Positions 263 through 18,782 of a stretch of 24,000 nt of DNA are shown in pieces (position 1 is the stretch's first letter; the number at the start of each line of letters is the position of its first letter). The notes beneath the pieces were generated by a model that saw only the letters and a program-made list of their open reading frames with translations, did no database searches and was not told where the DNA came from. Both the position numbers and the translations under genes were made by a program. The stretch is from Pasteurellaceae bacterium 15-036681. GTDB taxonomy: Bacteria; Pseudomonadota; Gammaproteobacteria; Enterobacterales; Pasteurellaceae. The stretch covers positions 1 to 24,000 of the forward strand of contig MQVI01000016.1 in the NCBI GenBank assembly GCA_002002485.1. Direction: 5' to 3'.

Positions 263-1243
263 TTAATTAATATTAAAACACGCAATCTGTGCGCCGTCTG
301 GGTACGTTTTCAGTTCAGGGCGTTCAATATGGCACTGATCTGTCGCAAAACGACAGCGAGCGTGGAATGCACAACCACGTGGCGGATTTAATGGGCTTGG
401 GAGTTCGCCCGTTAATTTAATGCGCTCACGGCGGTGCTCTGGCTCTAAGCGTGGTGTTGCTGAAAGTAACGCCTGTGTATAAGGATGGCGCGGATTACCA
501 AAAATCGTTTTGGTATCGCCTTTCTCAACACAACGGCCTAAATACATTACCATTACTTCATCGGCAATATGCTCAACCACTGAAAGATCATGCGAGATAA
601 ACACATAAGATAATCCCATCTCATCTTGTAGATCCATCATTAAGTTTAACACCTGTGCACGAACTGATACGTCTAGCGCTGATACGGGTTCATCGGCCAC
701 TACAATATCAGGGCGTAACATTAAACCACGCGCAATCGCAATACGCTGACGCTGACCGCCCGAGAACATATGTGGATAGCGATCATAAAACTCTGGTTTT
801 AAGCCCACTTTTGCCATCATCTCCAATACCTGCTCTTTGCGCTCTTTGGCAGAAAGCTCTGTATTGATTAACAACGGTTCTTCTAAAATCGCTCCCACTT
901 TTTTACGTGGATTTAATGAACCATAAGGGTTTTGGAATACAATCTGAATTTTCTTACGGCGTAATTTTGCCGTTTCAGGATCGTTTTCTAAAAAGTTTTG
1001 ACCATTGTAGTAAAGTTCGCCTTCCGTTGGGGGTTCAATCATTGTGAGCATACGCCCAAGTGTTGATTTTCCACAGCCTGATTCGCCAACGATAGCCAGC
1101 GTTTTACCTCGTTCAAGGGTAAATGAAACGCCGTCCACTGCTTTAACCAAACGTGGTTTAGCGAACATTCCTTTTTTAACGGGATAGTATTTTTTTAAGT
1201 TCACCGCATCTAAAAGCGGTGCGTTTTTCGGATTATTTTGCAT
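263..1243 (-). CDS. dppF: Dipeptide ABC transporter ATP-binding protein DppF
   Basis: 326-aa ORF with Walker A GESGCGKST, signature FSGGQRQR, Walker B VVADEP and the C-terminal Cys-containing oligopeptide-ABC extension. It is last in a dppABCDF-ordered operon, and its start lies 1 nt after the dppD stop. Confidence 0.9.
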   Translation of the reverse strand: MQNNPKNAPLLDAVNLKKYYPVKKGMFAKPRLVKAVDGVSFTLERGKTLAIVGESGCGKSTLGRMLTMIEPPTEGELYYNGQNFLENDPETAKLRRKKIQIVFQNPYGSLNPRKKVGAILEEPLLINTELSAKERKEQVLEMMAKVGLKPEFYDRYPHMFSGGQRQRIAIARGLMLRPDIVVADEPVSALDVSVRAQVLNLMMDLQDEMGLSYVFISHDLSVVEHIADEVMVMYLGRCVEKGDTKTIFGNPRHPYTQALLSATPRLEPEHRRERIKLTGELPSPLNPPRGCAFHARCRFATDQCHIERPELKTYPDGAQIACFNIN

Positions 1244-1244
1244 A

Positions 1245-2213
1245 TTATAAAATCTCGCCTAATGGGAAATGACATTTCACTTGTCTGCCATTGATTTCTC
1301 GCATTTCTGGTTCTTGGCTACGGCATAGATCCGTTGCATACGGACAGCGCGGATTGAGCAAACAACCTTGTGGACGGTCGTATTTCCCCGGAACCACACC
1401 CGATAGCGACTGTAAGCGAGATTTCCCTTCCGCAAATTCTGGTAAGGCTTTTAACAACGCTTCAGTATAAGGATGAAGGGGCGATTTAAAAATCTGCTCC
1501 GCTTTGCCTTCTTCCACAACCTGCCCTGCATACATTACGATAATGCGATGAGCCGACTCCGCCACTAACGCAAGGTCGTGAGTGATCAGAATTAATGCCA
1601 TATTCTCTTTGCGTTGTAACTCTAATAGTAGGTCGATAATCTGCGCTTGAATAGTTACGTCTAACGCGGTTGTCGGTTCATCAGCAATTAACAGTTTTGG
1701 ATTACAAGCAATTGCCATTGCAATCATCACACGTTGGCTCATACCGCCAGAAAGCTGATGTGGATACACATCTAAACGCGACTCTGGATCCGGAATCCCA
1801 ACCATCGTTAATAGCTCAATCGCACGCTCTCTACGGCTTGATTTTGAACCGCCTTGATGTACTTTGAGCGCTTCCATAATTTGATAGCCAACGGTATAGC
1901 TTGGGTTTAAGCTCGTCATTGCGTCTTGGAAAATCATTGAGACATCAGCCCCGACAATTTTCTGCTTTTCTTTCGGTTTTAAGGCTAATAAGTCATGATT
2001 ATCAAAGTGTAATGCATTTGCCATTACACGTCCCGGATAATCAATTAAGCCCATAATTGCTAGGGAGCTTACCGATTTGCCTGAACCTGATTCGCCAACA
2101 ATACCTAATACTTCGCCTTCATTAATGGTATAGCTAATACGATCTACCGCTTTAAATGGCGCTTTTTGATCGCCAAAATGAACAGAGAGTTCTTTAACTT
2201 CTAATAATGCCAT
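1245..2213 (-). CDS. dppD: Dipeptide ABC transporter ATP-binding protein DppD
   Basis: 322-aa ORF that aligns along its full length with remembered E. coli DppD (MALL.V..LSVHFGD...[26 protein letters not shown]...[17 protein letters not shown]). GGAG lies 5 nt upstream of the ATG. Confidence 0.9.
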
Positions 2214-2222
2214 CGGATTCTC

Positions 2223-3113
2223 CTACTGTTTTAATTTTGGATCTAAAGCGTCGCGTAAGCCATCACCCATTAAGTTGAAAGCTAACACAAGAGATAAAAT
2301 AGCTAAACCCGGAATGGTTACTAACCAGTTTGCTGAACGCATAAAGCCACGTGACTCAGCAAGCATTGTACCTAATTCTGGTGTCGGTGGCTGTGCACCA
2401 ATCCCTAAGAAACCTAAGGCTGCAAGTTCTAAAATTGCATTTGAGATACCCATTGTCATTTGCACGATTAACGGTGCTAAACAGTTAGGTAAAATTACAA
2501 TAAACATTAAACGCCATACGTTTGCACCCGCAACACGTGAAGCAGTTACGTAATCTCGACTTTTTTCACTTAATACCGATGCACGAGTTAAACGTACGTA
2601 ACTCGGAATTGAAACCACTGCGATAGCAATTGCGGCGTTAATCAGCGATGGGCCTAAAATGGTTACTACCCCGATAGTTAATAGCAGGCTTGGGATCGCA
2701 AGCATAATATCCACAAAGCGCATAATCACAATATCAAGAGTACCGCCGTAATAGCCGGCTAATAGGCCTAAAATAATGCCTAATACACAAGACATTACCA
2801 CGATCAGCATACCAATAAAGATTGATAAACGTGCGCCATAAATGATACGAGAAAGAATATCACGACCGATATCGTCCGTACCTAAGATATGTGCCGATTG
2901 ACCGCCTTCCATCCACATTGGTGGAAGTAAAAGAGCTGAACGATTTTGTGCAATAGGATCAAAAGGTGCAACAAAATCAGCAAAGATACAGGCAAACGCA
3001 ACTACGACAATAAATGCAAGACCAACTACAGCGCCTTTATTTTGGCGGAAGTAGTGCCAAAACTCCTGCATTGGCGTAAGCGGTTTTGGTGCTGTTACTT
3101 GTTGATTAGACAT
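2223..3113 (-). CDS. dppC: Dipeptide ABC transporter permease DppC. Start moved to the internal Met, giving 296 aa.
   Basis: The sequence from MSNQQVTAPKPLTPMQEFWHYFRQNKGAVVGL matches the E. coli DppC N-terminus, and the C-terminus NLMGDGLRDALDPKLKQ is identical in style. ATG 3113..3111 is preceded by GGAG (GTTGGAGTAATAAATTAATG). The 27 codons upstream in the ORF track cross a structured spacer. Confidence 0.85.
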   Translation of the reverse strand: MSNQQVTAPKPLTPMQEFWHYFRQNKGAVVGLAFIVVVAFACIFADFVAPFDPIAQNRSALLLPPMWMEGGQSAHILGTDDIGRDILSRIIYGARLSIFIGMLIVVMSCVLGIILGLLAGYYGGTLDIVIMRFVDIMLAIPSLLLTIGVVTILGPSLINAAIAIAVVSIPSYVRLTRASVLSEKSRDYVTASRVAGANVWRLMFIVILPNCLAPLIVQMTMGISNAILELAALGFLGIGAQPPTPELGTMLAESRGFMRSANWLVTIPGLAILSLVLAFNLMGDGLRDALDPKLKQ

Positions 3114-3162
3114 TAATTTATTACTCCAACATTTTTTATAATTTTTTAACAAAACGATCGCT

Positions 3163-3233
3163 GAGCTGGTCGAAGCGTGAGTTTTGTTATTCAAATTCTA
3201 TGCTTTATGCTTCATTGCTTCGACAGGCTCAGC
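3163..3233. repeat. Long imperfect dyad in the unusually long dppB-dppC spacer
   Basis: gctgagctggtcgaagc (3163..3179) pairs with gcttcgacaggctcagc (3217..3233). The stems are 7 bp and 8 bp around a 2-nt internal mismatch, with a loop of about 37 nt. A nested 6-bp hairpin GCTTCG...CGAAGC uses 3217..3222 and 3236..3241. Confidence 0.45.
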
Positions 3234-3246
3234 AACCGAAGCTAGA

Positions 3247-4251
3247 TTAAGTATGACGAATACGTGGGTTTACTACACCGTATAATAGATCAACGGTTAA
3301 ATTCACCACAATAATAATAGTTGCGATAATTAACACAGAGCCTTGTAATACAGGGTAATCACGAGAGTTAATCGCATCAATAATCCACTTACCGATACCC
3401 GGCCACGAGAAGATATTCTCCGTTAATACCGCACCAGAAAGTAGTTGCCCCACAATTAAACCCACCACTGTTACTACAGGAATTAACGCATTACGTAGTG
3501 CGTGAACAATCACAATACGAGTAGTATTTAAGCCTTTTGCTTTAGCGGTACGGATATAGTCTTCACCTAAAACCTCAAGCATTGATGAGCGGGTCATACG
3601 AGTAATAATCGCAAGGGGAATAGTCCCTAATACAATCGCAGGTAACACCAACGATTTAATTGCCCCTACAAATGCCCCCGGTTCATCAGATCGCCATGTA
3701 TCAATCAGCATAAAGCCGGTATCTGCTTCAATCCAAAATTCCGCAGGCAGACGGCCCGAGGCAGGCAAGCCTAATGGCGTTGAAAGGTATAAAATTAAAA
3801 TTAAGCCCCACCAGAAAATTGGCATTGAATACCCCGTCAGCGAGATAGACGAAATCGCATGAGAAATCCACGACTCTTTTTTCACTGCCGCAATGACCCC
3901 AAAGATAATCCCCGCAATCAACGACCAAAGCAACGCAAAGAACGCTAGCTCAACAGTTGCTGGGAATAGGGTGAAAAATTCTTTAAGAACAGGTTCATTG
4001 TTACGGAATGAATTACCAAGATCACCTTGGAAAATCCCTTTAATATAACTGAAATACTGTTCATGTAATGGTAAGTCTAAGCCCAATTGAGCCATCATCT
4101 GAGCATGAACTTCGGGTGAAAGCCCGCGTTCGCCCATACGAATTTCAATCGGATCCCCCGGAATTAAATGCACTAAGGCAAAAGTAATTAAGGTTATCGC
4201 CAAGAATGTTGGGATAACCATTAATATACGTTTAAGAATAAATTGAAACAT
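3247..4251 (-). CDS. dppB: Dipeptide ABC transporter permease DppB
   Basis: 334-aa ORF collinear with remembered E. coli DppB (M.QFIL.R......PTF..ITL.TFA.VH.IPGDP...; ...TRMTRSSMLEVLGEDYIRTA.AKGL...VVNPRIRH). Confidence 0.9.
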   Translation of the reverse strand: MFQFILKRILMVIPTFLAITLITFALVHLIPGDPIEIRMGERGLSPEVHAQMMAQLGLDLPLHEQYFSYIKGIFQGDLGNSFRNNEPVLKEFFTLFPATVELAFFALLWSLIAGIIFGVIAAVKKESWISHAISSISLTGYSMPIFWWGLILILYLSTPLGLPASGRLPAEFWIEADTGFMLIDTWRSDEPGAFVGAIKSLVLPAIVLGTIPLAIITRMTRSSMLEVLGEDYIRTAKAKGLNTTRIVIVHALRNALIPVVTVVGLIVGQLLSGAVLTENIFSWPGIGKWIIDAINSRDYPVLQGSVLIIATIIIVVNLTVDLLYGVVNPRIRHT

Positions 4252-4386: not shown

Positions 4387-5979
4387 TTATTCTAAATCAA
4401 CTTTATAGAAATTATGTAAACCAAATGGGCTTACAATATAACCTTTTACTTCCTTACGCAGAGGGAAGTAAGTCGTTGAGTGAGCGATATTAATCCACGG
4501 CGCTTGTTCATTTGCAATGACCTGTGCTTGTTTATAAAGCTCAGTACGTTTTGCAACATCATTTTCTTGAACCGCTTGTAGAATTAAATCATTGAATGGT
4601 TTGTAGCAGAATTTCGCATAGTTAGAACCTTGCTCAACCGCTGCACAACTTAATAAGGTATTTAAGAAGTTATCTGGGTCACCATTGTCGCCAGTCCAAC
4701 CCATCATACCTGTTTGGTGATCACCCGCACGCATACGTTTGATATATTCACCCCATTCGTAGCTAACGATTTTCGCATTTACGCCCACTTTTTTCCAGTC
4801 TTCTTGGATAAGTTCAGCCATACGACGTGCATTTGGGTTATACGGACGAGATACAGGCATTGCCCACAAGTCTGTTTCGAAACCATTTTCAAAGCCTGCT
4901 TCTTTTAATAACGCTTTCGCTTTTTCTGGGTTGTAGTCGTAATCTTTGATGTCATCATTATAAGACCACATTGTTGGCGGAATAGGGTTTTTCGCTACTT
5001 GGCCTGCACCTTGATATACCGCTTCTAAAATCGCCTGTTTATTTACTGCGTGGCTTAATGCTTGACGCACTTTCACATTATCAAAAGGCGCTTTTTGTAC
5101 GTTGAAGTTTACATAACCGATATTTAAGCCTGGTTTTTCTTGAACAACAAGTGCTGGATTTGCTTTAATTTTTGCCACATCCGCAGGGTTTGGATACGGC
5201 ATTGCGTGACATTCGCCTTTCTCTAATTTCGCTAAACGCACAGACGCATCAGGCGTGATTGAGAATACTAAGCGGTCGATTTTCGCCTTGCCTTCCCAAT
5301 ATTCATCAAAGGCTTTATAACGAATTGTTGAGTCTTTTTGGTAATCTACAAATTGGAATGGACCGGTACCAATAGGGTTGTTATCGAGTTTTTCTGGCGT
5401 GCCCACTTTTAACATTTTATCTGCATATTCCGCTGGTAAAATTGCGGCGAAGTCCATTGCAATATTCGCTAAGAACGGCGCATTTGGTACTTTTAAGATA
5501 AATTTAACCGTGTAATCATCTACTTTCTCTACACGATCGATAATGTTTTGCATATCCATACCTTCAAAGTATTCATACACACCACCTGATACTTTGTGAT
5601 ATGGGTGATTTTTATCTAACTGACGATTGATAGAGAAAAGTACGTCATCTGCGTTGAAATCACGAGTTGGCTTGAATTCTTTATTTGAGTGGAATTTCAC
5701 ACCTTTACGTAAGTGGAAAGTATACTCTTTACCATCTTCTGAAATATCCCATTTTTCTGCAAGAGCTGGGATTACCTTTGTTTCACCCTCTTCGAAAGTT
5801 GTTAAGGTATTAAACATTGTACGACCAGAAGCATCCAAAGTTGCACCATCAACCCCTAATTGTGGGTTGAAGTAAGACGGCGAGGCTTCTAAACAGTAAA
5901 CGAAAGTTTTAGGCGCAGCCATCGCTGAACCTGAAACCACTGCTAATGCAATTAAAGAGAGTTTTGCTAGTTTTTTCAT
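4387..5979 (-). CDS. dppA: Periplasmic dipeptide-binding protein DppA. Start moved to the internal Met, giving 530 aa.
   Basis: Collinear with remembered E. coli DppA (e.g. KWEVSEDGKTYTFHLRKGVK.H.NKEFKPTR..NADDV.FS; WAMPV.RPYNPNARRMAE.IQ.DW.KVGV.AKIV.YEWGEY.KR; GWTGDNGDPDNF). MKKLAKLSLIALAVVSGSAMA/AP is a type I signal peptide. ATG 5979..5977 is preceded by GGAG (CTGGAGTGAAATAATG). Confidence 0.85.
   Translation of the reverse strand: MKKLAKLSLIALAVVSGSAMAAPKTFVYCLEASPSYFNPQLGVDGATLDASGRTMFNTLTTFEEGETKVIPALAEKWDISEDGKEYTFHLRKGVKFHSNKEFKPTRDFNADDVLFSINRQLDKNHPYHKVSGGVYEYFEGMDMQNIIDRVEKVDDYTVKFILKVPNAPFLANIAMDFAAILPAEYADKMLKVGTPEKLDNNPIGTGPFQFVDYQKDSTIRYKAFDEYWEGKAKIDRLVFSITPDASVRLAKLEKGECHAMPYPNPADVAKIKANPALVVQEKPGLNIGYVNFNVQKAPFDNVKVRQALSHAVNKQAILEAVYQGAGQVAKNPIPPTMWSYNDDIKDYDYNPEKAKALLKEAGFENGFETDLWAMPVSRPYNPNARRMAELIQEDWKKVGVNAKIVSYEWGEYIKRMRAGDHQTGMMGWTGDNGDPDNFLNTLLSCAAVEQGSNYAKFCYKPFNDLILQAVQENDVAKRTELYKQAQVIANEQAPWINIAHSTTYFPLRKEVKGYIVSPFGLHNFYKVDLE
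4570..4579 (-). repeat. Uptake-signal-sequence-like 9-mer ACAAGCGGT (10th base T)
   Basis: Plus strand a-accgcttgt, reverse complement ACAAGCGGTT. This matches the Actinobacillus/Mannheimia-type USS core as I remember it. Confidence 0.4.
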
Positions 5980-5990
5980 TATTTCACTCC

Positions 5991-6024
5991 AGTTAAAAAG
6001 AAAGGTAGCAGAAACATTGCTACC
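5991..6024 (-). terminator. Rho-independent terminator after lacZ, lying inside the dppA 5' leader
   Basis: Minus strand reads GGTAGCA-ATGTTTC-TGCTACC (6024..6004) followed by TTTCTTTTTAAC. The U-tract abuts the dppA Shine-Dalgarno. Confidence 0.65.
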
Positions 6025-6042
6025 TGTTGTGTTGCAAATTTG

Positions 6043-6070
6043 AATATACAACTTTTTTTATGAATCGCAA
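6043..6070 (-). promoter_or_regulatory. Candidate sigma70 promoter for dppA
   Basis: Minus strand TTGCGA (6070..6065), 16 nt, TATATT (6048..6043). The predicted transcript starts near 6036 and includes GCAACACAACA and the hairpin above. Confidence 0.4.
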
Positions 6071-6078
6071 TAGATTTT

Positions 6079-10372
<4,294 letters not shown>

Positions 10373-10404
10373 AGGATATACCTTCTGAAAATGAATTTTG
10401 CGGA

Positions 10405-10433
10405 AGTGTAATCCTCTGTTTTGGTAGAAACAA
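10405..10433 (-). promoter_or_regulatory. Candidate lacY promoter
   Basis: Minus strand TTGTTT (10433..10428), 17 nt, TACACT (10410..10405). An alternative -10, TAACAT (10442..10437), lies inside the palindrome listed next. I cannot decide between them from sequence alone. Confidence 0.35.
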
Positions 10434-10436
10434 GTG

Positions 10437-10451
10437 ATGTTAGCTTAACAT
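10437..10451. promoter_or_regulatory. Operator-like palindrome ATGTTA-GCT-TAACAT upstream of lacY
   Basis: Perfect 6-bp arms around a 3-nt spacer. The left part, TGTTAGCT, is identical to the reverse complement of the site in the regulator promoter (11301..11313). Confidence 0.35.
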
Positions 10452-10456
10452 TTTAG

Positions 10457-10478
10457 AAGTGTGAGTTGGGTCACGTTG
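10457..10478. promoter_or_regulatory. CRP (cAMP receptor protein) binding site candidate
   Basis: aagTGTGAgttgggTCACgttg against consensus aaaTGTGAtctagaTCACAttt. One half-site is perfect, the other matches 4 of 5, and the 6-nt spacer is correct. The centre is about 70 nt upstream of the TSS predicted from the TACACT -10. Confidence 0.55.
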
Positions 10479-10495
10479 GGGGATTGTTATAAGTA

Positions 10496-10529
10496 AAAAC
10501 GGATAGGGTTGGTTAAGCCTATCCGTTTT
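10496..10529 (-). terminator. Strong rho-independent terminator closing the orphan cassette and insulating lacY
   Basis: Perfect 12-bp stem aaaacggatagg (10496..10507) / cctatccgtttt (10518..10529) with a 10-nt loop. The minus strand ends CCGTTTTTAC. The hairpin starts 7 nt after the stop of the 45-aa ORF. Confidence 0.8.
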
Positions 10530-10536
10530 ATAGAAA

Positions 10537-10674
10537 TTATTTTTTTAAATCTGGAAGAGTAACGACAAAACTTTTGATCTTGTTTTCACGAATCCCTTTT
10601 AAAATGGCATTACGTGTTCTAATTCTATTCATCTTTTTAAATTCAATCGCATTCTTTGGTTTTTGCTCTGCCAT
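10537..10674 (-). CDS. Small basic protein, 45 aa (MAEQKPKNAIEFKKMNRIRTRNAILKGIRENKIKSFVVTLPDLKK); unknown function; absent from the ORF track.
   Basis: ATG 10674..10672 lies 3 nt after the stop of the 163-aa ORF. It is preceded by AGGAG with 6-nt spacing (CAGGAGTAATATATG) and followed by TAA and the terminator. Composition is 13 K/R against 4 D/E. Confidence 0.6.
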   Translation of the reverse strand: MAEQKPKNAIEFKKMNRIRTRNAILKGIRENKIKSFVVTLPDLKK

Positions 10675-10677
10675 ATA

Positions 10678-11169
10678 TTACTCCTGATAGTTTTTATAAT
10701 TTGGTGTCAGAATCAAAAAACATTCTCCATTAAGCCCTAGTCCAAGAATAGCTTTGAAATTCCTTAATGCTTCAGAAGGAGAATTACACATCTGACGGTA
10801 CATTTTTTGTAGGGATAATCGATCCGCAACAATAAAATAGCAATCGGGATTGTAGCGTTGATAATGTCTAAAAATCAAGCTAAATAACACTTCTTTTAAG
10901 TTTTGATATTTGCTCTTAGTTAAATGATAATTTTTAGGTGCACTGTACAATTCTCCTTGATAGTGATCGTCATAAAAAATTTCAGATAAACTAAATTCTA
11001 CAGTGTAAGTGTGCTTACCACGAGTTAAACGTGAAATTACCTCATCAAAATCCAAACTACCCTCGACAGCATAGGTAAATGAGATTGTATAAGCGACATC
11101 ATTTACGTAAAAATCTGCATATTGATAAATAAAGCCATCATCATTGAGTTCATTAAAAATAATCTCCAT
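10678..11169 (-). CDS. Hypothetical protein, 163 aa; no family recognised.
   Basis: Intact ORF with a strong SD (TAGGAGGACTAATG). It is more AT-rich by eye than the flanking lacY and regulator genes. There is no signal peptide or TM segment and no motif I can assign. Confidence 0.75.
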   Translation of the reverse strand: MEIIFNELNDDGFIYQYADFYVNDVAYTISFTYAVEGSLDFDEVISRLTRGKHTYTVEFSLSEIFYDDHYQGELYSAPKNYHLTKSKYQNLKEVLFSLIFRHYQRYNPDCYFIVADRLSLQKMYRQMCNSPSEALRNFKAILGLGLNGECFLILTPNYKNYQE

Positions 11170-11232
11170 TAGTCCTCCTATAATTCTTTTTTTATAGGGT
11201 TATTCTGCTCAAAACAATTTCATTACACAAAG

Positions 11233-11279
11233 CTCAAATATTATTTTTTCGACGAAAATCGTAAAAATAATATTTTGAG
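11233..11279. repeat. Long AT-rich inverted repeat in the divergent promoter region
   Basis: ctcaaatattatttttt (11233..11249) pairs with aaaaataatattttgag (11263..11279). The arms are complementary apart from a 1-nt register slip (AAA vs AAAA). The inner part cgacgaaaatcg also contains CGA...TCG. Confidence 0.5.
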
Positions 11280-11313
11280 ATTGAAACAACTTAAGAACTA
11301 TGATTAGCTAACA
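11275..11313 (+). promoter_or_regulatory. Candidate promoter of the LacI-family gene with an overlapping operator-like site TGATTAGCTAACA
   Basis: TTGAGA (11275..11280), 18 nt, TATGAT (11299..11304). The TTAGCTAA perfect 8-bp palindrome within 11301..11313 overlaps the -10 and predicted TSS, 23 nt upstream of the ATG. Confidence 0.4.
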
Positions 11314-11335
11314 AAATTGCATTTAAGGGGGATAT

Positions 11336-12331
11336 ATGACTTCATTAAAAGATGTGGCGGAATTAGCAAAAGTATCAATGATGACAGTTTCTCGTGCTTT
11401 GAATTCACCAGAAAAGCTTAATTCTGAAACTTACCAACGGGTAAAGTCAGCCATAGAACAACTCAATTATGAACCCGATCCTACGACTCGTAGCTCGCGC
11501 AAAACCAAAGAGAAAACCGTTGCGGTACTTTCGCTAGGCACGGCAACCACGCCCCTTTCTGTCGATATCCTACTTGCCATAGAACAAACCGCTTACCAAC
11601 ATCGTTGGAATACCTTAGTGATTAATGTCTTTGAAGATAATCCTCGCCAATTTGAACAAGCCGTTGAGCGTGTTATTCAATATCGCCCAACAGGAATTAT
11701 TATTGCACGCAACGGTTTAAAGAATATTAAAATCCCACGTAAATTGCGTGATTTCCCAATAGTGTTAGCAAATTGTGTGACTGATGATATTCAAGTGGCA
11801 AGCTATATTCCCGATGATTATCAAGGACAACGAGATATTGCACGTTTAATCGTAGAAAAAGGCTATCGCAAACCACTGTTTTTACATATTCCCATTAACT
11901 ATATTGCCACTCAAAATCGCAAACAGGGCTTTGAAGATGTATGGTTTAGTCAAGAAAGTCCACTGCAACCGGTGCATTTCTTTATGCAACCTGATGAAGA
12001 AAATTATTTAGGGGGCGCAAAGCCGTTGGCGGATTTATTAGAAAATGGAGAACCGTTTGATTTTGATGTAGTGGTATGTGGCAATGATCGCATTGCTTTT
12101 GTCGCTTACCAGTTATTGCTAAGAAAGGGGCTTAAAATTCCTGAAGACGTTGCAGTAACAGGTTATGACAATATGGTAGGGGTCGCTCATCTATTTTTAC
12201 CGCCCCTAACCACTGTTCAACTACCCCATTATGAAATGGGCGAGCAAGCAATGCTACATTTTATTCAAGGTCGAACAGAGAAAGAAACTGTAGCATTAAA
12301 ATGCTCGTTGATTGCAAGGCAATCGGTATAA
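11336..12331 (+). CDS. LacI/GalR-family transcriptional regulator
   Basis: 331-aa ORF. It has the N-terminal HTH LKDVAELAKVSMMTVSRALN and a periplasmic-binding-protein-like sugar-binding core (..VVCGNDRIAFVAYQLL...GLKIPEDVAVTGYDN). AAGGGGGA lies upstream of the ATG. The effector cannot be read from the sequence. Confidence 0.9.
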   Translation: MTSLKDVAELAKVSMMTVSRALNSPEKLNSETYQRVKSAIEQLNYEPDPTTRSSRKTKEKTVAVLSLGTATTPLSVDILLAIEQTAYQHRWNTLVINVFEDNPRQFEQAVERVIQYRPTGIIIARNGLKNIKIPRKLRDFPIVLANCVTDDIQVASYIPDDYQGQRDIARLIVEKGYRKPLFLHIPINYIATQNRKQGFEDVWFSQESPLQPVHFFMQPDEENYLGGAKPLADLLENGEPFDFDVVVCGNDRIAFVAYQLLLRKGLKIPEDVAVTGYDNMVGVAHLFLPPLTTVQLPHYEMGEQAMLHFIQGRTEKETVALKCSLIARQSV

Positions 12332-12338
12332 ATATTAT

Positions 12339-13931
12339 CTACTCCACATCAATCCCATAGAAGTTGTGTGCCATAAATGGACTTGGCACATAGCCTTTTA
12401 CTTCTTTGCGGATTGGGAAGAATACCGTTGAGTGCGCAATTGGGAGCCATACTGCTAACTCTTTCATCTTCACTTGTGCATCTTTATAGATCTGCTCACG
12501 CTCTGCTTTATCATTGATTTGAGACGCTTTATTGATCGCTTCATCAAACTCTTTATCGCAGAAGCCTGCATAGTTTGAGCCTAACTCAACGGCATTACAG
12601 GTTAAAAGTGGGGTAAAGAAGTTATCTGGGTCGCCATTATCGCCCGTCCAGCCCATCATACCTGTGGCGTGTTCGCCTTTTGCCATACGTTTAAGGTACT
12701 CGCCCCATTCATAGCTAACAATCTTCGCCTGTACGCCGATCTGCGCCCAGTCGTGTTGGATCATCTCTGCCATACGGCGTGCATTTGGGTTATAAGGACG
12801 TGAAACAGGCATCGCCCAAAGTTCTGTTTCAAAACCATTTTCAAAGCCGGCTTCTTTCAACAATTCTTTGGCTTTTTCAGGATTATATTCAAAATCAACC
12901 ACATTATCGTTATAGCCCCAAACTGACGGCGGAATCGGGTTTTTCGCTTTTAAGCCTGCGCCTTGATAAACAGACTCTAACACTGCATCTTTATTTACCG
13001 CATAGTTTAACGCTTTACGTACAAGCACATTATCCAACGGTTTTTGGCGTGCATTAAGCGTGATATAGCCGATATTTAAGCCCGGATTCTCAAGCACATT
13101 GATATTTGGATCGGCTTTTAGCGTTGGTAAATCCGCAGGATTCGGATAAGGAATCGCTTGGCACTCATTTTTTTGAAGTTTTGCCGTACGCACTGTTGCA
13201 TCAGGGGTTACCGTAAAGATTAAGCGGTCAATTTTTGACTTACCCTGCCAGTATTGTGGAAACGCCATAAAACGCACATTTGCATCTTTTTGGTGAGAAT
13301 AGAATGAATATGGGCCTGTGCCAATCGGGTTGGTATCTACTTTTTCTGGTGTGCCTGCTTTTAGCATTTTATCTGCATATTCCGCCGATAAAATCGCCCC
13401 ATAATCTAAGGCAAGATTTGATAAAAATGGTGCATTTGGCACTTTTAAAGTGAATTTCACAATGTAATCATCGACTTTTTCAACGGTATCAATAATATTT
13501 TGCATATCCACACCAGTGAATAATTCATAGCTACCGCCAGAAACTTTGTGGTATGGATTATTTTCATCAATAAAACGAGTGTATGAGAACACCACATCAT
13601 CGGCATTGAAATCACGAGTTGGTTTGAAGTCTTTATTTGAGTGGAATTTTACGTTTTTACGCAGAGTAAGAAGATAAGTTTTGCCGTCGTCAGAGACTTG
13701 CCATTTTTCAGCAAGAGAAGGAATGATGTTCGTTGTGCCTTTTTCAAAGGCGATCAAGCGGTCGAAAACGGCTTGCCCAACGTCAAAACTTGCACCGTCT
13801 GTTGCCATTTGTGGATTAAGAAACATTGGCGAAGATTCAACGCAATAGGTAAAAGTTTTGATCGGGGCTGCATAAGCGCTATTTAGAGCAAAGGCGGAGA
13901 TCAATGTGGCTAATGTTGTGAGCTTTTTCAT
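12339..13931 (-). CDS. DppA-like periplasmic peptide-binding protein, second paralogue. Start moved to the internal Met, giving 530 aa.
   Basis: Collinear with the first DppA, of identical length, and roughly two-thirds identical by eye. Long identical blocks include FKPTRDFNADDV, NPYHKVSGG, WAMPVSRPYNPNARRMAE and MMGWTGDNGDPDNF. The signal peptide is MKKLTTLATLISAFALNSAYA/AP. ATG 13931..13929 is preceded by AAGGA. No permease or ATPase genes are adjacent. Confidence 0.85.
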   Translation of the reverse strand: MKKLTTLATLISAFALNSAYAAPIKTFTYCVESSPMFLNPQMATDGASFDVGQAVFDRLIAFEKGTTNIIPSLAEKWQVSDDGKTYLLTLRKNVKFHSNKDFKPTRDFNADDVVFSYTRFIDENNPYHKVSGGSYELFTGVDMQNIIDTVEKVDDYIVKFTLKVPNAPFLSNLALDYGAILSAEYADKMLKAGTPEKVDTNPIGTGPYSFYSHQKDANVRFMAFPQYWQGKSKIDRLIFTVTPDATVRTAKLQKNECQAIPYPNPADLPTLKADPNINVLENPGLNIGYITLNARQKPLDNVLVRKALNYAVNKDAVLESVYQGAGLKAKNPIPPSVWGYNDNVVDFEYNPEKAKELLKEAGFENGFETELWAMPVSRPYNPNARRMAEMIQHDWAQIGVQAKIVSYEWGEYLKRMAKGEHATGMMGWTGDNGDPDNFFTPLLTCNAVELGSNYAGFCDKEFDEAINKASQINDKAEREQIYKDAQVKMKELAVWLPIAHSTVFFPIRKEVKGYVPSPFMAHNFYGIDVE

Positions 13932-13959
13932 ATTGTGTCCTTTATTTTTTAAATTATTG

Positions 13960-13998
13960 ATAAAAAGAAACCCCCCGAAAGTTATCTTCCGAGGGGTT
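13960..13998 (-). terminator. Attenuator terminator (segments 3:4) in the leader of the second dppA paralogue
   Basis: Minus strand AACCCCTCGGAAG-ATAA-CTTTCGGGGGGTT forms a 13-bp stem including two G-U pairs. It is followed by TCTTTTTAT and lies 29 nt upstream of the SD. Confidence 0.8.
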
Positions 13999-14045
13999 GA
14001 AATTTGTTTTGGCTTTTTTGCTATTTGCATTCGCTACACATTTCG

Positions 14046-14083
14046 CTCGGAAGTTTCTTCCGAACACACAAAATGCCCGAAAG
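14046..14083 (-). promoter_or_regulatory. Attenuator segments 1, 2a and 2b (alternative pairing partners)
   Basis: Segment 1 is CUUUCGGG (14083..14076), 2a is UUCGGAAG (14064..14057) and 2b is CUUCCGAG (14053..14046). 2a:2b form a hairpin with an AAA loop. 2b is the exact reverse complement of CUCGGAAG in terminator arm 3. Segment 1 can pair with 2a through 5 Watson-Crick and 3 G-U pairs. Confidence 0.65.
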
Positions 14084-14084
14084 A

Positions 14085-14129
14085 TTATTCAGGTAAATGG
14101 TGATGATGATGTTTGCGAATGTTGTTCAT
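14085..14129 (-). CDS. His-rich leader peptide MNNIRKHHHHHLPE (14 codons)
   Basis: ATG 14129..14127 is preceded by GGAG at 5-nt spacing. The codons CAT CAT CAT CAC CAT occupy 14111..14097, with stop TAA at 14087..14085. It sits between a good promoter and a terminator, in the same layout as hisL. Confidence 0.75.
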   Translation of the reverse strand: MNNIRKHHHHHLPE

Positions 14130-14156
14130 AATAGCTCCAAAAATTGCTTAATGGAG

Positions 14157-14185
14157 AATATAGCTGAATTGACATTGAAATGCAA
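14157..14185 (-). promoter_or_regulatory. Sigma70-type promoter of the His-leader/dppA-paralogue transcript
   Basis: Minus strand TTGCAT (14185..14180), 17 nt, TATATT (14162..14157). The predicted TSS is about 20 nt upstream of the leader ATG. Confidence 0.6.
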
Positions 14186-14329: not shown

Positions 14330-15088
14330 TTACATATGATGTACTACAAGTGGTTTTCCTTGATGTTCTAAGACTTGAGCATCAAGGTTAAAGAGAATTT
14401 TCAAATTCGCTTCTGTAATGATTTTTTCTGGCGATCCGATCATCTCAATTTTACCGTTTTTCATTGCTATAATAGTATCAGCATAGGCAGATGCCATATT
14501 AATATCGTGTACCACCATAACCGTAGTCAGTTTTAATTCATCGGTTAAACGACGCAGTAAGCGCATTAGTTCACGAGCATGGAACATATCCAAATTATTC
14601 AGCGGCTCATCAAGTAATACATAGCTAGTTTGCTGACAAAATGTCATCGCAATCAGAGCGCGTTGACGTTGCCCTCCAGAAAGCTCACTTAAAAATCGAT
14701 CTTTCAAATCAACTAGTTCAAATCGAACTAATGCATCTTCAACAATTTCTCTATCTTCATCTTGAATCCGCCCTTGATGGTGTGGATAGCGGCCAAACAT
14801 CAGTAAATCGTTAACAGTAATTCTGCTATGAATAGAATTGTCTTGGGTAAGAATCGCTAAATGTCGGGCGATAGTACGTGATGGACTTTTGCTAATATCC
14901 AAATCATTTAAGTGAATTTCACCTTGCTGTATCGGTTGCAGACGAGCGATCAATGAAAGAAGAGTCGATTTACCCGCACCATTTGCACCAATAAGGGCAG
15001 TAATTCCGCCATCGTTAATGGTTAAGTTAATACCATCTAAAATCAAATTATTATCGATTTTGTGGGAAAGATTGGTTATTTTTATCAT
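14330..15088 (-). CDS. Iron-siderophore ABC transporter ATP-binding protein (FecE/FepC/CeuD/VctC type)
   Basis: 252-aa ORF with Walker A GANGAGKST, signature LSGGQRQR, Walker B YVLLDEP and H-loop VVHD. It is the last gene of an operon ordered SBP-permease-permease-ATPase. Confidence 0.9.
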   Translation of the reverse strand: MIKITNLSHKIDNNLILDGINLTINDGGITALIGANGAGKSTLLSLIARLQPIQQGEIHLNDLDISKSPSRTIARHLAILTQDNSIHSRITVNDLLMFGRYPHHQGRIQDEDREIVEDALVRFELVDLKDRFLSELSGGQRQRALIAMTFCQQTSYVLLDEPLNNLDMFHARELMRLLRRLTDELKLTTVMVVHDINMASAYADTIIAMKNGKIEMIGSPEKIITEANLKILFNLDAQVLEHQGKPLVVHHM

Positions 15089-15140
15089 TTAAATTCCTTA
15101 TGTTTACCCCCTCTCTGGCAAGCGAGTTAGAGCTGATATA

Positions 15141-16088
15141 TTATTTCTTACGTTTTAACATCAAATAAATAAACACAATACCGCCAACAAATTCAATTAC
15201 CACGCTTAGTACTCCTTGCATTTTAAGTATTTGTTCAAAGACTAATTGCCCTAAAATAAGCGTTATTGCTGAAACCATAAAGACCATAGGAATCCTTATG
15301 TTATGGTGCATTTGGGGAGCAATTGCATTAACGAGTGCGCAAATTAATAATCCTAAAAAGAGTACTGGACCTACTAATGCTGTTGAGACTGAAACAAGTA
15401 GTGCACAGCAGATAAGTAATTGACGTGAAAATTTATGGTAATCTAAACCTAGTCCAATCGCTCCATCTTTACCAAGGAGTAATACGTCTAGCTTGTGATG
15501 CTGTTTCCAGATCCAAACTACTGACAATAATGTAATCACTAAGCCGATCCAAATTAAACTTGGTTTAGCACTATTAAAATCAGCGAAAGAAGAACCTTGT
15601 GCTATTGCAAACTCTGTTGGATCGACCATTCGTTGTAAGAAATTATTTAAGCTTCTAAACAGCACCCCAAATATCACACCAATTAAAATCATACGTGTAA
15701 TATCGGTTTTACCTTTAGTTAAGGTTAAAAATAGTAATAATGAGCCACCAAGCATTAAGCAAGTTTCTAGCAAAAACTTACCGCTTGCATCTAATTGAGT
15801 AAATCCCAAGCCACCGAATATAAAAACTAAAGCAGTTTGTATAAGCAAGTAGAGCGAATCAAATCCCAATATGCTCGGTGTTAAAATAGGATTATGAGTT
15901 AAGGTTTGAAATAATAGTGTTGAAATACCGATACTGTAGCCAATAATAATCAGCATTAATAGCTTTTTACCACGTAAGGATAATACAAAATCCCAGTTTC
16001 CTTTAACGTTATAAGTTAAGAACGCAATGCTTACTACCGTTAAGCAAACAAGTAGTAAATTAATAATAAATTTTGATGATCTAGCCAT
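15141..16088 (-). CDS. Iron-siderophore ABC transporter permease (FecCD family)
   Basis: 315-aa polytopic membrane protein with a FecCD-like pattern. Its ATG overlaps the upstream permease stop by 8 nt (ATGGCTAG), indicating translational coupling. Confidence 0.88.
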   Translation of the reverse strand: MARSSKFIINLLLVCLTVVSIAFLTYNVKGNWDFVLSLRGKKLLMLIIIGYSIGISTLLFQTLTHNPILTPSILGFDSLYLLIQTALVFIFGGLGFTQLDASGKFLLETCLMLGGSLLLFLTLTKGKTDITRMILIGVIFGVLFRSLNNFLQRMVDPTEFAIAQGSSFADFNSAKPSLIWIGLVITLLSVVWIWKQHHKLDVLLLGKDGAIGLGLDYHKFSRQLLICCALLVSVSTALVGPVLFLGLLICALVNAIAPQMHHNIRIPMVFMVSAITLILGQLVFEQILKMQGVLSVVIEFVGGIVFIYLMLKRKK

Positions 16089-17034
16089 TGCGCTTGCCCT
16101 TAAATAGTAGGTAAAGGAAAATCAGTGTGCCGACCACACCGAATAGGGTTGAAATTGGGATCTCGTAAGGTGCATTTACTATGCGCCCTAAAATATCACA
16201 AAATAGCACTAAGTTAGCACCGAATAACGCAACGGATGGTAAATTATGACGTAGGCGATCACCTGCTAGGCGAGAAACAATATTGGGCACGACGAGTCCA
16301 ATAAAAGGGATTTGCCCTACTGTAACCACGACGACAGATGTAATCATGGCTACGATAAACAGCGCAATCCATGTCATTTGACGATAGTTTACTCCTAAAC
16401 TTGTACTAAGATTACGACCCAAGCCGGCAATACTTAGTCTATCTGCCATAATATAGACTAGAATTCCGAGGCCAGCAGTGAACCAAAGTAGTTCATATCG
16501 CCCTGCAAGTATCCCTGAAAAATCACCAGAGAACCAGATGTATAGCACTTGTAGGCTATCTGTTTCATAAGCAATAAAAGTACTGATTGATTCAATGATA
16601 TTACCAAATACAATCCCAACTAAAGGAACCATCAAATGTTGATAAGGCGGTAGGCGGTTCAAAAGTAGTGAAAAGATCCCCATTCCAATGAGTGCAGAAA
16701 GCGTCGCCAACGACATTTTTACTATCAAAGCTGAGGTTGGGAAAAGTAAGCTAGTAAGTAAAATTCCCAAGCCAGCACTTTGGCTTGCACCAATCATACT
16801 CGGTTCGATAAAGCGATTTTTAAGTACGATTTGCAATACCATTCCAGCAATAGCAAGTGTTGCTCCCACAAGAACTACAGCAAGAGTACGTGGTAAGCGG
16901 CTAACAAATAGCAACTGAGTTTGCTCTGGTTGGCTAAAAATATTTTGCCAATGAAAATCTGCAACCCCAGTAGTGATACTAATTGGGCAGAGAATAAAAA
17001 GGATAAGTAGGTTTATTTTGTTTAAAGAGAGCAT
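16081..17034 (-). CDS. Iron-siderophore ABC transporter permease (FecCD family)
   Basis: 317-aa polytopic membrane protein. Motifs include RLPRTLAVVLVGATLAIAGMVLQ and GQIPFIGLVVPNIVR, typical of FecCD/BtuC-type permeases. Confidence 0.88.
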   Translation of the reverse strand: MLSLNKINLLILFILCPISITTGVADFHWQNIFSQPEQTQLLFVSRLPRTLAVVLVGATLAIAGMVLQIVLKNRFIEPSMIGASQSAGLGILLTSLLFPTSALIVKMSLATLSALIGMGIFSLLLNRLPPYQHLMVPLVGIVFGNIIESISTFIAYETDSLQVLYIWFSGDFSGILAGRYELLWFTAGLGILVYIMADRLSIAGLGRNLSTSLGVNYRQMTWIALFIVAMITSVVVVTVGQIPFIGLVVPNIVSRLAGDRLRHNLPSVALFGANLVLFCDILGRIVNAPYEIPISTLFGVVGTLIFLYLLFKGKRNG

Positions 17035-17050
17035 AATCCATTACAAATGA

Positions 17051-17078
17051 TTTTCCTTGCCCTTGGAGGCAAGGAAAA
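17051..17078 (-). other. Intra-operon hairpin between the binding-protein and permease genes
   Basis: Perfect 11-bp stem ttttccttgcc (17051..17061) / ggcaaggaaaa (17068..17078). There is no clear U-tract on the minus strand, so it is more likely an mRNA stability or partial-termination element. Confidence 0.4.
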
Positions 17079-17090
17079 GAGGAAAGAACG

Positions 17091-17990
17091 TTATTTATTT
17101 TCAAACGCTTGTTTGATATTGGTTAAATCCATTCTAAGTTGTTCAATGCCACCTGGTGCAAGGTAAGAAGCATTGCTTAAATAGACAATATGGCCATTTT
17201 TCCATGCTTTTGTTTGATGGATAAGTGCATTATCTAGTACTTCTTGTGCACTTTTTCCTTCTTGTCCGATAGATGCTATGCGGTCCATAACAAATAACCA
17301 ATCAGGATTTAATTTTTGGATAAATTCAAAACTAACGGGTTTACCATGGCCAGCAATTTTAATGCTGTCATCTGCCATTGGAATACCTAAGCTATTGTGA
17401 ATCCAGCTTAAACGATAACCTGAACCAAAAGCTGAGATTTTTCCGCCATTCACCATGATAATTAAACCATTACCTTTACCTTTTACAGCTTGTTGGGTTT
17501 CTTTATATAAGGTTTCAATTTCAGTTTTTAATTTATCAGCTTGTTCTTGTTTATCGAATAATTTTCCAAAGCTATCGAGGCGTTTTAAGCCATCTTCAAT
17601 AAGTTTGTCACCATTATCAGTCATATCAATAGTTTGTGCGATTGCACTGACATCATCAAATTTCTTTGCAGAACGAGTGCCTACAATAATTAAATCAGGT
17701 TTTAGAGCATGTAATGCCTCTAAATCTGGTTCAAATACAGTTCCCACAAAAGTAGCATTATCAAAAGTTGATTTTGCGTAGGGCAATACTTTAACTGCAT
17801 TAGCAATACCATCTACTTTTACACCTAGTGCATGCAATGTATCGATACTACCAGTGTCATATACAGCTATTTTTGCTGGTGGAGCATCAATAGTTACATT
17901 ACCACGAGCGGTGGGAATTGTTACTTCTTTTGCAAATACCGAACCGATGGTCATTAAACAACCTAATGTGATCAATGTCTTTTTGAACAT
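17091..17990 (-). CDS. Periplasmic iron-siderophore binding protein (class III SBP, CeuE/VctP/YclQ-like)
   Basis: 299-aa ORF with signal peptide MFKKTLITLGCLMTIGSVFA/KE. Sequence features match the Peripla_BP_2 type (PDLIIVG, DWLFVMDR). It is the first gene behind a Fur box. The substrate cannot be read from the sequence. Confidence 0.85.
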   Translation of the reverse strand: MFKKTLITLGCLMTIGSVFAKEVTIPTARGNVTIDAPPAKIAVYDTGSIDTLHALGVKVDGIANAVKVLPYAKSTFDNATFVGTVFEPDLEALHALKPDLIIVGTRSAKKFDDVSAIAQTIDMTDNGDKLIEDGLKRLDSFGKLFDKQEQADKLKTEIETLYKETQQAVKGKGNGLIIMVNGGKISAFGSGYRLSWIHNSLGIPMADDSIKIAGHGKPVSFEFIQKLNPDWLFVMDRIASIGQEGKSAQEVLDNALIHQTKAWKNGHIVYLSNASYLAPGGIEQLRMDLTNIKQAFENK

Positions 17991-18010
17991 TCAAAACTCC
18001 TTTTTATTAA

Positions 18011-18025
18011 CGATAATAATTATCA
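18011..18025. promoter_or_regulatory. Fur box
   Basis: cGATAATaATTATCa is a perfect GATAAT-n-ATTATC palindrome. It matches the 7-1-7 Fur motif tGATAATnATTATCa at 14 of 15 positions and sits between the -10 and the SD of the binding-protein gene. Confidence 0.7.
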
Positions 18026-18029
18026 ATAG

Positions 18030-18058
18030 ATTGTAGCTAGGTTTTTCAAGTTTGTAAA
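18030..18058 (-). promoter_or_regulatory. Sigma70 promoter of the siderophore ABC operon
   Basis: Minus strand TTTACA (18058..18053), 17 nt, TACAAT (18035..18030). Confidence 0.55.
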
Positions 18059-18065
18059 TTACAGG

Positions 18066-18097
18066 TATAAAAAAACGCGCATAAAAAATGCGCGTTT
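18066..18097 (-). terminator. Rho-independent terminator of adk
   Basis: Minus strand AAACGCGCAT-TTTTT-ATGCGCGTTT followed by further T residues (TTTTTTTATAC), 22 nt after the adk stop. Confidence 0.8.
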
Positions 18098-18119
18098 AGT
18101 CTTAAAATAATGAGTCAAA

Positions 18120-18782
<663 letters not shown>

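Follow-up and report, generated by a model that had tools for sequence, protein, structure and literature searches.

Why should a leader of the type that controls histidine biosynthesis stand in front of a gene for a peptide-binding protein? This question is raised by a 24,000-nucleotide (nt) stretch of contig MQVI01000016.1 from Pasteurellaceae bacterium 15-036681 (hereafter the window), on whose minus strand a promoter and leader precede a gene for a paralogue of the dipeptide-binding protein DppA. We call this paralogue DppA2, a name given here to a clade of DppA paralogues that separates from the Pasteurellaceae DppA1 and single-copy DppA proteins in a neighbour-joining tree. The sequence evidence supports the view that the element is a hisL-type ribosome-mediated attenuator ahead of the DppA paralogue, because it combines a full-length Rfam match, conservation across ten loci, compensatory changes in its helices and a near-identical cassette in front of hisGDC. 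Very probably, it is a working duplicate of the Pasteurellaceae his-operon leader and promoter that controls dppA2 by transcription attenuation.

A full-length His_leader ahead of dppA2

The Rfam family His_leader (RF00514) was matched at 13963..14109 of the minus strand with 68.9 bits against a gathering score of 49 (E = 3.1e-09). The match spans model positions 1-126 of 126 and was the sole Rfam family match in a scan of the whole 24-kb window. Besides the full-model score, the element displays the structural hallmarks of RF00514, namely a Shine-Dalgarno sequence with an open reading frame (ORF) that contains a run of His codons, mutually exclusive helices, a terminator, and compensatory changes. 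It departs from the family in its context, since His_leader elements usually lie upstream of histidine biosynthesis genes and the downstream gene here encodes a DppA paralogue. Furthermore, the 196-nt leader has a minimum free energy (MFE) of -57.6 kcal/mol, compared to -35.4 +/- 4.0 kcal/mol for shuffled sequences (z = -5.6), and 0 of 200 shuffles folded as well.

An attenuator at this position had been proposed in a first-pass annotation of the window, and all the parts listed there were recovered (Table 1). The promoter, the Shine-Dalgarno motif GGAG and the 14-codon ORF with five His codons are exactly as described there, the pairing segments that it listed all fall within the segments B to F defined here, and the U-tract is present as well. 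What it missed is segment A (CCUGAA), and with it the possibility of termination when the leader is not translated. The terminator/promoter scan selected the same -10 hexamer, TATATT, for the window leader, and a -35/-10 pair with similar spacing occupies the same position in the 9 other full-length leaders, including the hisG leader described below, while the hexamers themselves vary (the pair of locus L041 was read by eye). Likewise, GGAG is found at the equivalent position in 8/8 aligned full-length leaders, and a stretch of 17 nt at segment B, UAAUCUUUCGGGCAUUU, is invariant in these 8 leaders. The end of the terminator lies about 29 nt from the dppA2 ATG, and the Shine-Dalgarno sequence and start codon of dppA2 follow, with no other gene in between.

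The leader was present in 10/10 DppA2-clade loci having upstream sequence, which derive from Glaesserella, Mannheimia varigena, other Pasteurellaceae and metagenomes. In contrast, the single-copy dppA loci of M. granulomatis (L043) and Bisgaardia (L047) gave no His_leader match, and no His-codon run was found upstream in the other 39 loci of the first scan (mostly from Rahnella, Scandinavium and other Enterobacterales). We therefore rejected the idea that the leader is a general feature of dppA. Across 9 full-length orthologous leaders, the His run is kept while other residues of the leader peptide, including the N-terminal ones, vary. The comparison with orthologous loci suggested in the first-pass annotation thus came out in its favor, as both the His run and the alternative helices are kept in the ten DppA2 loci. 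The leader peptide of one metagenomic locus (L053, 297..344) has six His codons (HHHHHH) and ends with a TGA stop codon instead of TAA.

Table 1. Leader element of the window, leaders of other DppA2 loci, and genes of the dpp and lac-like regions. Positions refer to the window; His_leader scores are given in bits.
Feature	Position	Strand	Remarks
Sigma-70-type promoter	14185..14157	-	-35 TTGCAT 14185..14180, 17-nt spacer, -10 TATATT 14162..14157; read directly
Shine-Dalgarno GGAG of leader ORF	14138..14135	-	5 nt ahead of ATG
Leader ORF, MNNIRKHHHHHLPE	14129..14085	-	14 codons and stop; five consecutive His codons 14111..14097
Segment A, CCUGAA	14093..14088	-	final two leader codons; partner of B in first hairpin A:B (MFE structure and helix list)
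Segment B, UCUUUCGGGCAU	14084..14073	-	starts 1 nt past stop codon; partner A or C; contains first-pass segment 1, CUUUCGGG
Segment C, GUGUUCGGAAGA	14067..14056	-	partner B or D; contains first-pass segment 2a, UUCGGAAG
Segment D, CUUCCGAGCG	14053..14044	-	partner C, or E via CUUCCGAG (14053..14046; first-pass segment 2b), the antiterminator
Segment E, AACCCCUCGGAAG	13998..13986	-	terminator 5' arm; its 3' eight bases also pair with D; contains first-pass segment 3, CCCCUCGGAAG
Segment F, CUUUCGGGGGGUU	13981..13969	-	terminator 3' arm; contains first-pass segment 4, CUUUCGGGGGG
U-tract, UCUUUUUAU	13968..13960	-	directly after segment F
Intrinsic terminator	13998..13960	-	E:F stem with 7 G-C pairs, 4-nt loop, tail TCTTTTTAT (terminator scan)
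Leader, L001 (LFhippo2)			67.9; peptide MNNIRKHHHHHLPE, as in window
Leader, L041 (Glaesserella)			75.5; peptide MKFILNHHHHHLPE
Leader, L044 (Glaesserella)			72.5; peptide MNFIFNHHHHHLPE
Leader, L042 (Pasteurellaceae 'Macca')			62.0; peptide MNFIIALHHHHHFPE
Leader, L046 (Mannheimia varigena, metagenome-assembled genome)			65.5; peptide MNYCVKHHHHHLTD
Leader, L048 (metagenome)			62.4; peptide MNYSVKNHHHHHLTD
Leader, L049 (metagenome)			60.7; peptide MNYSVKNHHYHHLTD
Leader, L053 (metagenome)			read directly, no score; peptide MNYSVKHHHHHHLTD
Leader, L052 (metagenome)			read directly; contig end cuts it within segment B
dppA2	12339..13931	-	530 aa; family-5 solute-binding protein, DppA paralogue, signal peptide; ATG at 13931
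dppA1	5979..4387	-	second DppA copy in window
dppB	4251..3247	-	dipeptide permease
dppC	3194..2223	-	dipeptide permease
dppD	2213..1245	-	dipeptide permease
dppF	1243..263	-	dipeptide permease
LacI-type regulator gene	11336..12331	+	lac-like block between dppA2 and dppA1
Unassigned 163-aa ORF	10678..11169	-	lac-like block
LacY-type permease gene	9104..10372	-	lac-like block
LacZ-type beta-galactosidase gene	6079..9093	-	lac-like block

Alternative folds and covariation

The helices of the window leader comprise 6 bp (A:B), 12 bp (B:C), 10 bp (C:D), 8 bp (D:E), and 13 bp (E:F). Without constraints, the MFE structure consisted of A:B, C:D and E:F in 8/8 full leaders tested, which includes the two helices (2a:2b and 3:4) that the first-pass annotation had named as the terminating configuration. 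A translating ribosome was then represented by masking the bases it would cover, which reach ~13 nt past the start of the codon in the A site. When this codon was His 3 or His 5 and segment F was still untranscribed, the MFE structure became B:C (12-13 bp) plus D:E (8-9 bp) in 8/8 loci, with -31.1 kcal/mol for this nascent fold in the window. D:E corresponds to the antiterminator 2b:3 that had been proposed from the exact complementarity of its arms. With the mask at the stop codon, B was covered and C:D formed in 7/8 loci, leaving E for F, so that both conformers were recovered by the position of the ribosome. The ribosome-stalling logic of the first-pass annotation holds up as well, except that it placed the stall on early His codons, whereas it is codons 3 to 5 at which a ribosome covers segment A.

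Base pairs were counted over 11 sequences, the hisG leader among them, using the loop as anchor for E:F and the 5' end of D as anchor for D:E; the MAFFT alignment of the leaders was not used for this purpose, as it misaligned the terminator arms in L042 and in the L046 group. Not a single non-standard pair was found in D:E or E:F. At position 8 of D:E, 5 sequences have G-C and 6 have A-U, and the E base of this pair also pairs with F, as C-G or U-A. Therefore, a single position of E (C to U) changes together with both of its partners, D (G to A) and F (G to A), which constitutes covariation in the antiterminator and the terminator alike and bears out the compensatory changes that the first-pass annotation had proposed to look for in these two stems. 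Furthermore, L046, L048, L049 and L052 carry an additional U in E, to which an additional A corresponds in D as well as in F; in L053, the partner of the extra E base in D is a G, giving a G-U pair. Two changes in E of L042 are compensated in F and tolerated in D as G-U pairs.

Several observations weigh against a working attenuator. The His run of the window has 5 codons, compared to the seven of E. coli hisL, and in L049 (2785..2990) the run is broken by Tyr (HHYHH) through a change from CAC to TAC. The nascent fold of L046 still contained D:E with the mask at the stop codon. Since segments B and C are nearly invariant, the helices A:B, B:C and C:D are backed by conservation but not by covariation. 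Finally, the optimum of the full transcript keeps the terminator E:F even with a mask on the His codons; the choice for read-through must therefore be kinetic, as in the classical model.

Origin of the cassette and proposed mechanism

A 25-base motif shared without variation by the dppA2 leaders was used to scan metagenome contigs, and a single match was obtained (L051). The leader at this locus (MYLTNALHHHHRLPE; His_leader, 67.8 bits) has the same promoter as the window, TTGCAT-17-TATATT, and lies directly upstream of hisG-hisD-hisC, all three of which pass curated cut-offs. Its identity to the dppA2 leaders is 75 to 84%, compared to 76 to 92% between these and the window leader. Because the hisG leader is equally close, the dppA2 cassette is a paralogue of the Pasteurellaceae his-operon leader and not an independent invention, and the sequences indicate that promoter and leader were duplicated together from the his operon to the front of dppA2.

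From this arrangement, we infer histidine-dependent read-through, the use of the DppBCDF permease and a ligand preference of DppA2, which could be connected as follows. Transcription would start ~7 nt after the -10 hexamer, near 14150, and a ribosome would translate the 14-codon leader. With charged tRNA-His in plentiful supply, the ribosome at the stop codon would cover B, C:D and E:F would form, and the polymerase would terminate at the U-tract, so that the terminated leader RNA would measure roughly 185 to 190 nt. Without translation, A:B, C:D and E:F would all form, which would likewise lead to termination. When charged tRNA-His is scarce, the ribosome would stall on His codons 3 to 5 and cover A, allowing B:C to form; this would free D for pairing with E before F is made, no terminator would arise, and the polymerase would read into dppA2. 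The exported DppA2 would most likely deliver dipeptides to DppBCDF, possibly preferring those that contain histidine, and the response to histidine starvation would then include peptide import. A shortage of histidine probably increases peptide uptake, and the role suggested by the first-pass annotation, a histidine-starvation scavenger feeding DppBCDF, is plausible.

The classical example of a hairpin-dependent transcription pause site is A:B of the Salmonella his leader. By analogy, the A:B hairpin of the window may serve as a pause site that couples the ribosome to the polymerase. In the scan, this hairpin and the following CAUUUUGUGU (14093..14076, minus strand) were flagged as terminator-like.

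DppA2 and its probable ligands

DppA2 matches Pfam SBP_bac_5 (PF00496) with 354.8 bits (threshold, 32.4). Its best NCBIfam match is the DppA equivalog NF043070, yet its 782 bits stay under the cut-off of 1005, as do the 883.7 bits of the other copy of the window, dppA1. As the equivalog cut-off is not reached, the protein is called DppA-like here, not DppA. Among structures, DppA2 scored highest against E. coli DppA (8z1y and 1dpp; 724 to 731 bits), followed by the Pasteurellaceae proteins GbpA (3m8u; 624 bits) and HbpA2 (3tpa; 556 bits), and other family-5 binders such as NikA and CntA matched with lower scores. The DppA2 of the window is 98% identical to that of Pasteurellaceae bacterium LFhippo2, and the protein search returned a small group of relatives with 68 to 71% identity. 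Over the whole clade, identities are 68 to 78% across lineages and 89 to 90% in close pairs, while identity to E. coli or Rahnella DppA amounts to 56 to 62% for DppA2 and 59 to 67% for DppA1. The clade is marked by a signature of T4, F/L114, I/V314, G316 and A/S498 (here and below, in mature E. coli numbering), which is carried by about 14 of the top 120 protein clusters. A protein from Actinobacillus minor (P0054) considered as a further DppA2 has the DppA1-type signature and was placed outside this clade. The ORF calls of both copies run past their likely starts, for dppA1 to a TTG at 6051 and for dppA2 to an ATG at 14030 inside the leader.

In E. coli DppA, Arg355 and Asp408 (Arg383 and Asp436 of the precursor) form salt bridges to the carboxyl and amino ends of the dipeptide, respectively, and a double charge reversal at these residues abolishes binding (PMC12136057; PMC8566422). 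Both are kept in 9/9 aligned DppA2 sequences, and Y357 and W405 are likewise conserved in every DppA2. HbpA2, on the other hand, has Arg in place of Asp408 and binds no peptide (PMC3295651). Membership of DppA2 in the HbpA2 clade was rejected, as DppA2 keeps Asp408 and its score against 3tpa is below those against E. coli DppA. With both clamps as well as Tyr357 and Trp405 conserved, a dipeptide-like ligand is most likely for DppA2. A further residue of interest is position 498, which is Lys in E. coli DppA and lies in the pocket for the C-terminal side chain, according to one sentence in PMC8566422. All Pasteurellaceae DppA1 and single-copy proteins have Leu at this position, and every DppA2 has Ala or Ser; it is speculation that the smaller residue accommodates a larger C-terminal side chain, for instance an imidazole.

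Tentatively, DppA2 may be a dedicated binder of histidine dipeptides (for example X-His, or carnosine and anserine of the host) that originated from a dppA duplication and, under the duplicated hisL cassette, belongs to a small regulon governed by tRNA-His charging together with yuiF and the his operon, and represents a main route to host histidine in His-auxotrophic Pasteurellaceae. A point against such a preference for His peptides is that it derives only from the regulatory link and a few clade-specific substitutions. It is also possible, though we would not count on it, that the attenuator is functional while DppA2 is a general or differently specialised dipeptide binder, in which case histidine starvation would raise dipeptide uptake overall, maybe including that through dppA1 in relatives. 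E. coli DppA takes most dipeptides, mainly via their two termini (PMC8566422), and both clamps are unchanged in DppA2. Moreover, the scan revealed no terminator-like site in the dppA2-dppA1 interval of L041 or L042, where a promoter-like site precedes dppA1 and a terminator-like hairpin follows it, so that attenuator read-through may reach dppA1 in these genomes. However, it would be odd for another general binder to be placed under control by histidine specifically, and the DppA2 clade has diverged faster than DppA1, with fixed differences that include position 498.

It is improbable that the ligand of DppA2 is instead a non-dipeptide tied to histidine supply, for example histidinol, or histidine in free or metal-complexed form. 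While ligand switching is documented among Pasteurellaceae DppA paralogues, with GbpA binding glutathione (PMC3295651), and while NikA and CntA are among the matches of DppA2, the residues R355, Y357, W405 and D408 are all kept, the last of which HbpA2 has lost, and DppA2 is nearer to E. coli DppA than to GbpA or HbpA2. Lastly, it is very unlikely that the leader is an inert remnant of a duplicated his promoter region, with dppA2 constitutive or under another signal, since the cassette, although it clearly duplicates the hisG leader and has an interrupted His run in one orthologue, is intact in ten loci despite the divergence of DppA2 across lineages, its compensatory substitutions and matched insertions preserve both alternative helices, and an inert 13- to 15-bp terminator ahead of the gene would silence dppA2.

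Relation to known systems

With its His-codon ORF, the hairpins A:B, C:D and E:F, the alternatives B:C and D:E, and an intrinsic terminator, the dppA2 leader resembles hisL of Salmonella and E. coli (RF00514), from which it differs in being followed by a gene for a periplasmic dipeptide-binding paralogue and not by a biosynthetic operon. The first-pass annotation had referred to some precedent for attenuator control of transporters, and a direct one exists in the same bacterial order, even though dppA is not part of it: His_leader elements precede yuiF, encoding a predicted histidine permease, in H. influenzae Rd, H. parasuis SH0165 and A. aphrophilus (Sun et al. 2013, PMC3766115, Additional file 1). 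Most of the nine Pasteurellales His-leader regulons described in this comparative work, which built on Rfam models, contain his operons, to which yuiF is added in H. influenzae Rd and A. aphrophilus, and that of H. parasuis SH0165 consists of yuiF alone; dppA belongs to none of the nine (PMC3766115). The supplementary text of the same study gives his operons as the His-leader regulons of gamma-proteobacteria and mentions transporters for Thermotogales only. In Pasteurellales, yuiF thus already provided a known case of an uptake gene under His_leader control; it shares with dppA2 the RNA family, the bacterial order and a function in uptake. Their products differ, YuiF being a secondary permease for a free amino acid and DppA2 the peptide-binding protein of an ATP-binding cassette (ABC) transporter.

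With respect to the protein, the closest parallel is GbpA (HbpA) of Haemophilus influenzae and relatives, a Pasteurellaceae-specific DppA duplicate that is encoded away from the permease and uses a Dpp-type permease (PMC3295651), thereby providing a precedent for an extra binding protein that shares DppBCDF. Unlike DppA2, which is closer to canonical DppA and has kept the clamps, GbpA binds glutathione and has another, extended set of ligand residues, and no attenuator has been reported for gbpA. Several DppA paralogues (DppA1 to DppA5) also operate with one DppBCDF permease in Pseudomonas aeruginosa; these stem from independent duplications, and the abstract of the publication mentions no amino-acid-specific leader control (PMC4206461). 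A histidine sensor common to biosynthesis and uptake genes is found in Firmicutes as well, where the histidine T-box or HisR acts on hisXYZ and yuiF (PMC9413887). Sensing there relies on a T-box RNA that binds tRNA or on a repressor protein, and the substrate of the transporters is free histidine.

In a literature search conducted mostly outside subscription journals, no report linking a histidine attenuator to dppA or a Dpp-family protein was found. DppA2 thus appears to be a new target of His_leader, while the mechanism itself is classical, and the gain is an incremental one, a modest extension of a well-known mechanism. Nevertheless, it provides a concrete hypothesis for the function of a DppA paralogue in several animal-associated Pasteurellaceae, namely histidine supply via peptide uptake, and it illustrates how a regulon could grow without a protein regulator when a whole cassette of promoter and attenuator is copied from a biosynthetic operon to a transport gene. 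For genome annotation, it implies that an Rfam His_leader match should not be read as marking a his operon.

Genomic context of dppA2

In the window, dppA1 and dppBCDF are located downstream of dppA2 on the same strand, with dppBCDF representing a canonical dipeptide permease and the presumed partner of DppA2. The two dppA copies are separated by a lac-like block of ~6.3 kb (6079..12331). The regulated gene had been described in the first-pass annotation as an orphan DppA paralogue, of which the DppA-like nature stands but an ancestral orphan state does not. In six related loci (L041, L042, L044, L045, L048 and L050), dppA2 lies directly upstream of dppA1, at a distance of about 105 to 270 nt, and dppB comes after dppA1 wherever the contig extends far enough; the isolated position in the window is therefore derived. 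The evidence that DppA2 may dock on DppBCDF consists of this genomic linkage. A position apart from the dpp genes was also found in L046, L049 and L052. The lac-like block itself has the appearance of an inserted or rearranged segment; the G+C content drops to 0.32 to 0.34 near 10000..11500, and a composition check of the block gave no clear sign of foreign origin. On the other side of the leader, adk and an iron/siderophore-type ABC transporter (a Peripla_BP_2 binding protein, two FecCD permeases and an ATPase) are encoded at 14330..18764. As adk and an iron-type ABC transporter also flank dppA2 in the Glaesserella loci L041 and L044, this side is syntenic.

A second layer of conserved regulation, by the small RNA GcvB, was considered. 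Its target consensus in P. multocida is AACACAACAT (PMC5900567), and matches to it were found on the minus strand near the starts of dppA2 (13913..13921 and 13930..13938) and dppA1 (6024..6032). An exact CACAACAT core is situated at codons 4 to 6 of dppA2, a copy with one mismatch overlaps its start codon, and another such copy lies 45 nt upstream of dppA1. Regulation by GcvB was rejected as a conserved feature, given that an exact CACAACAT near the start occurs in 4/10 dppA2 loci and that the 11 occurrences in the window, compared to 8.2 expected, are not above chance.

Two further observations concern the related loci. In L041, a long near-perfect palindrome (6342..6413) lies between dppA1 and dppB and overlaps a terminator-like site; on both strands it gave sub-threshold matches to the unrelated mir-3923 model, and it is probably a repetitive extragenic palindromic (REP)-like element or a terminator by which the proportion of dppA and dppBCDF transcripts is set. 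In L048, an nqrA-II noncoding RNA motif (RF04310), which is unrelated to the leader, was identified upstream of nqrA on the minus strand (661..837; 120.9 bits against a gathering score of 55).

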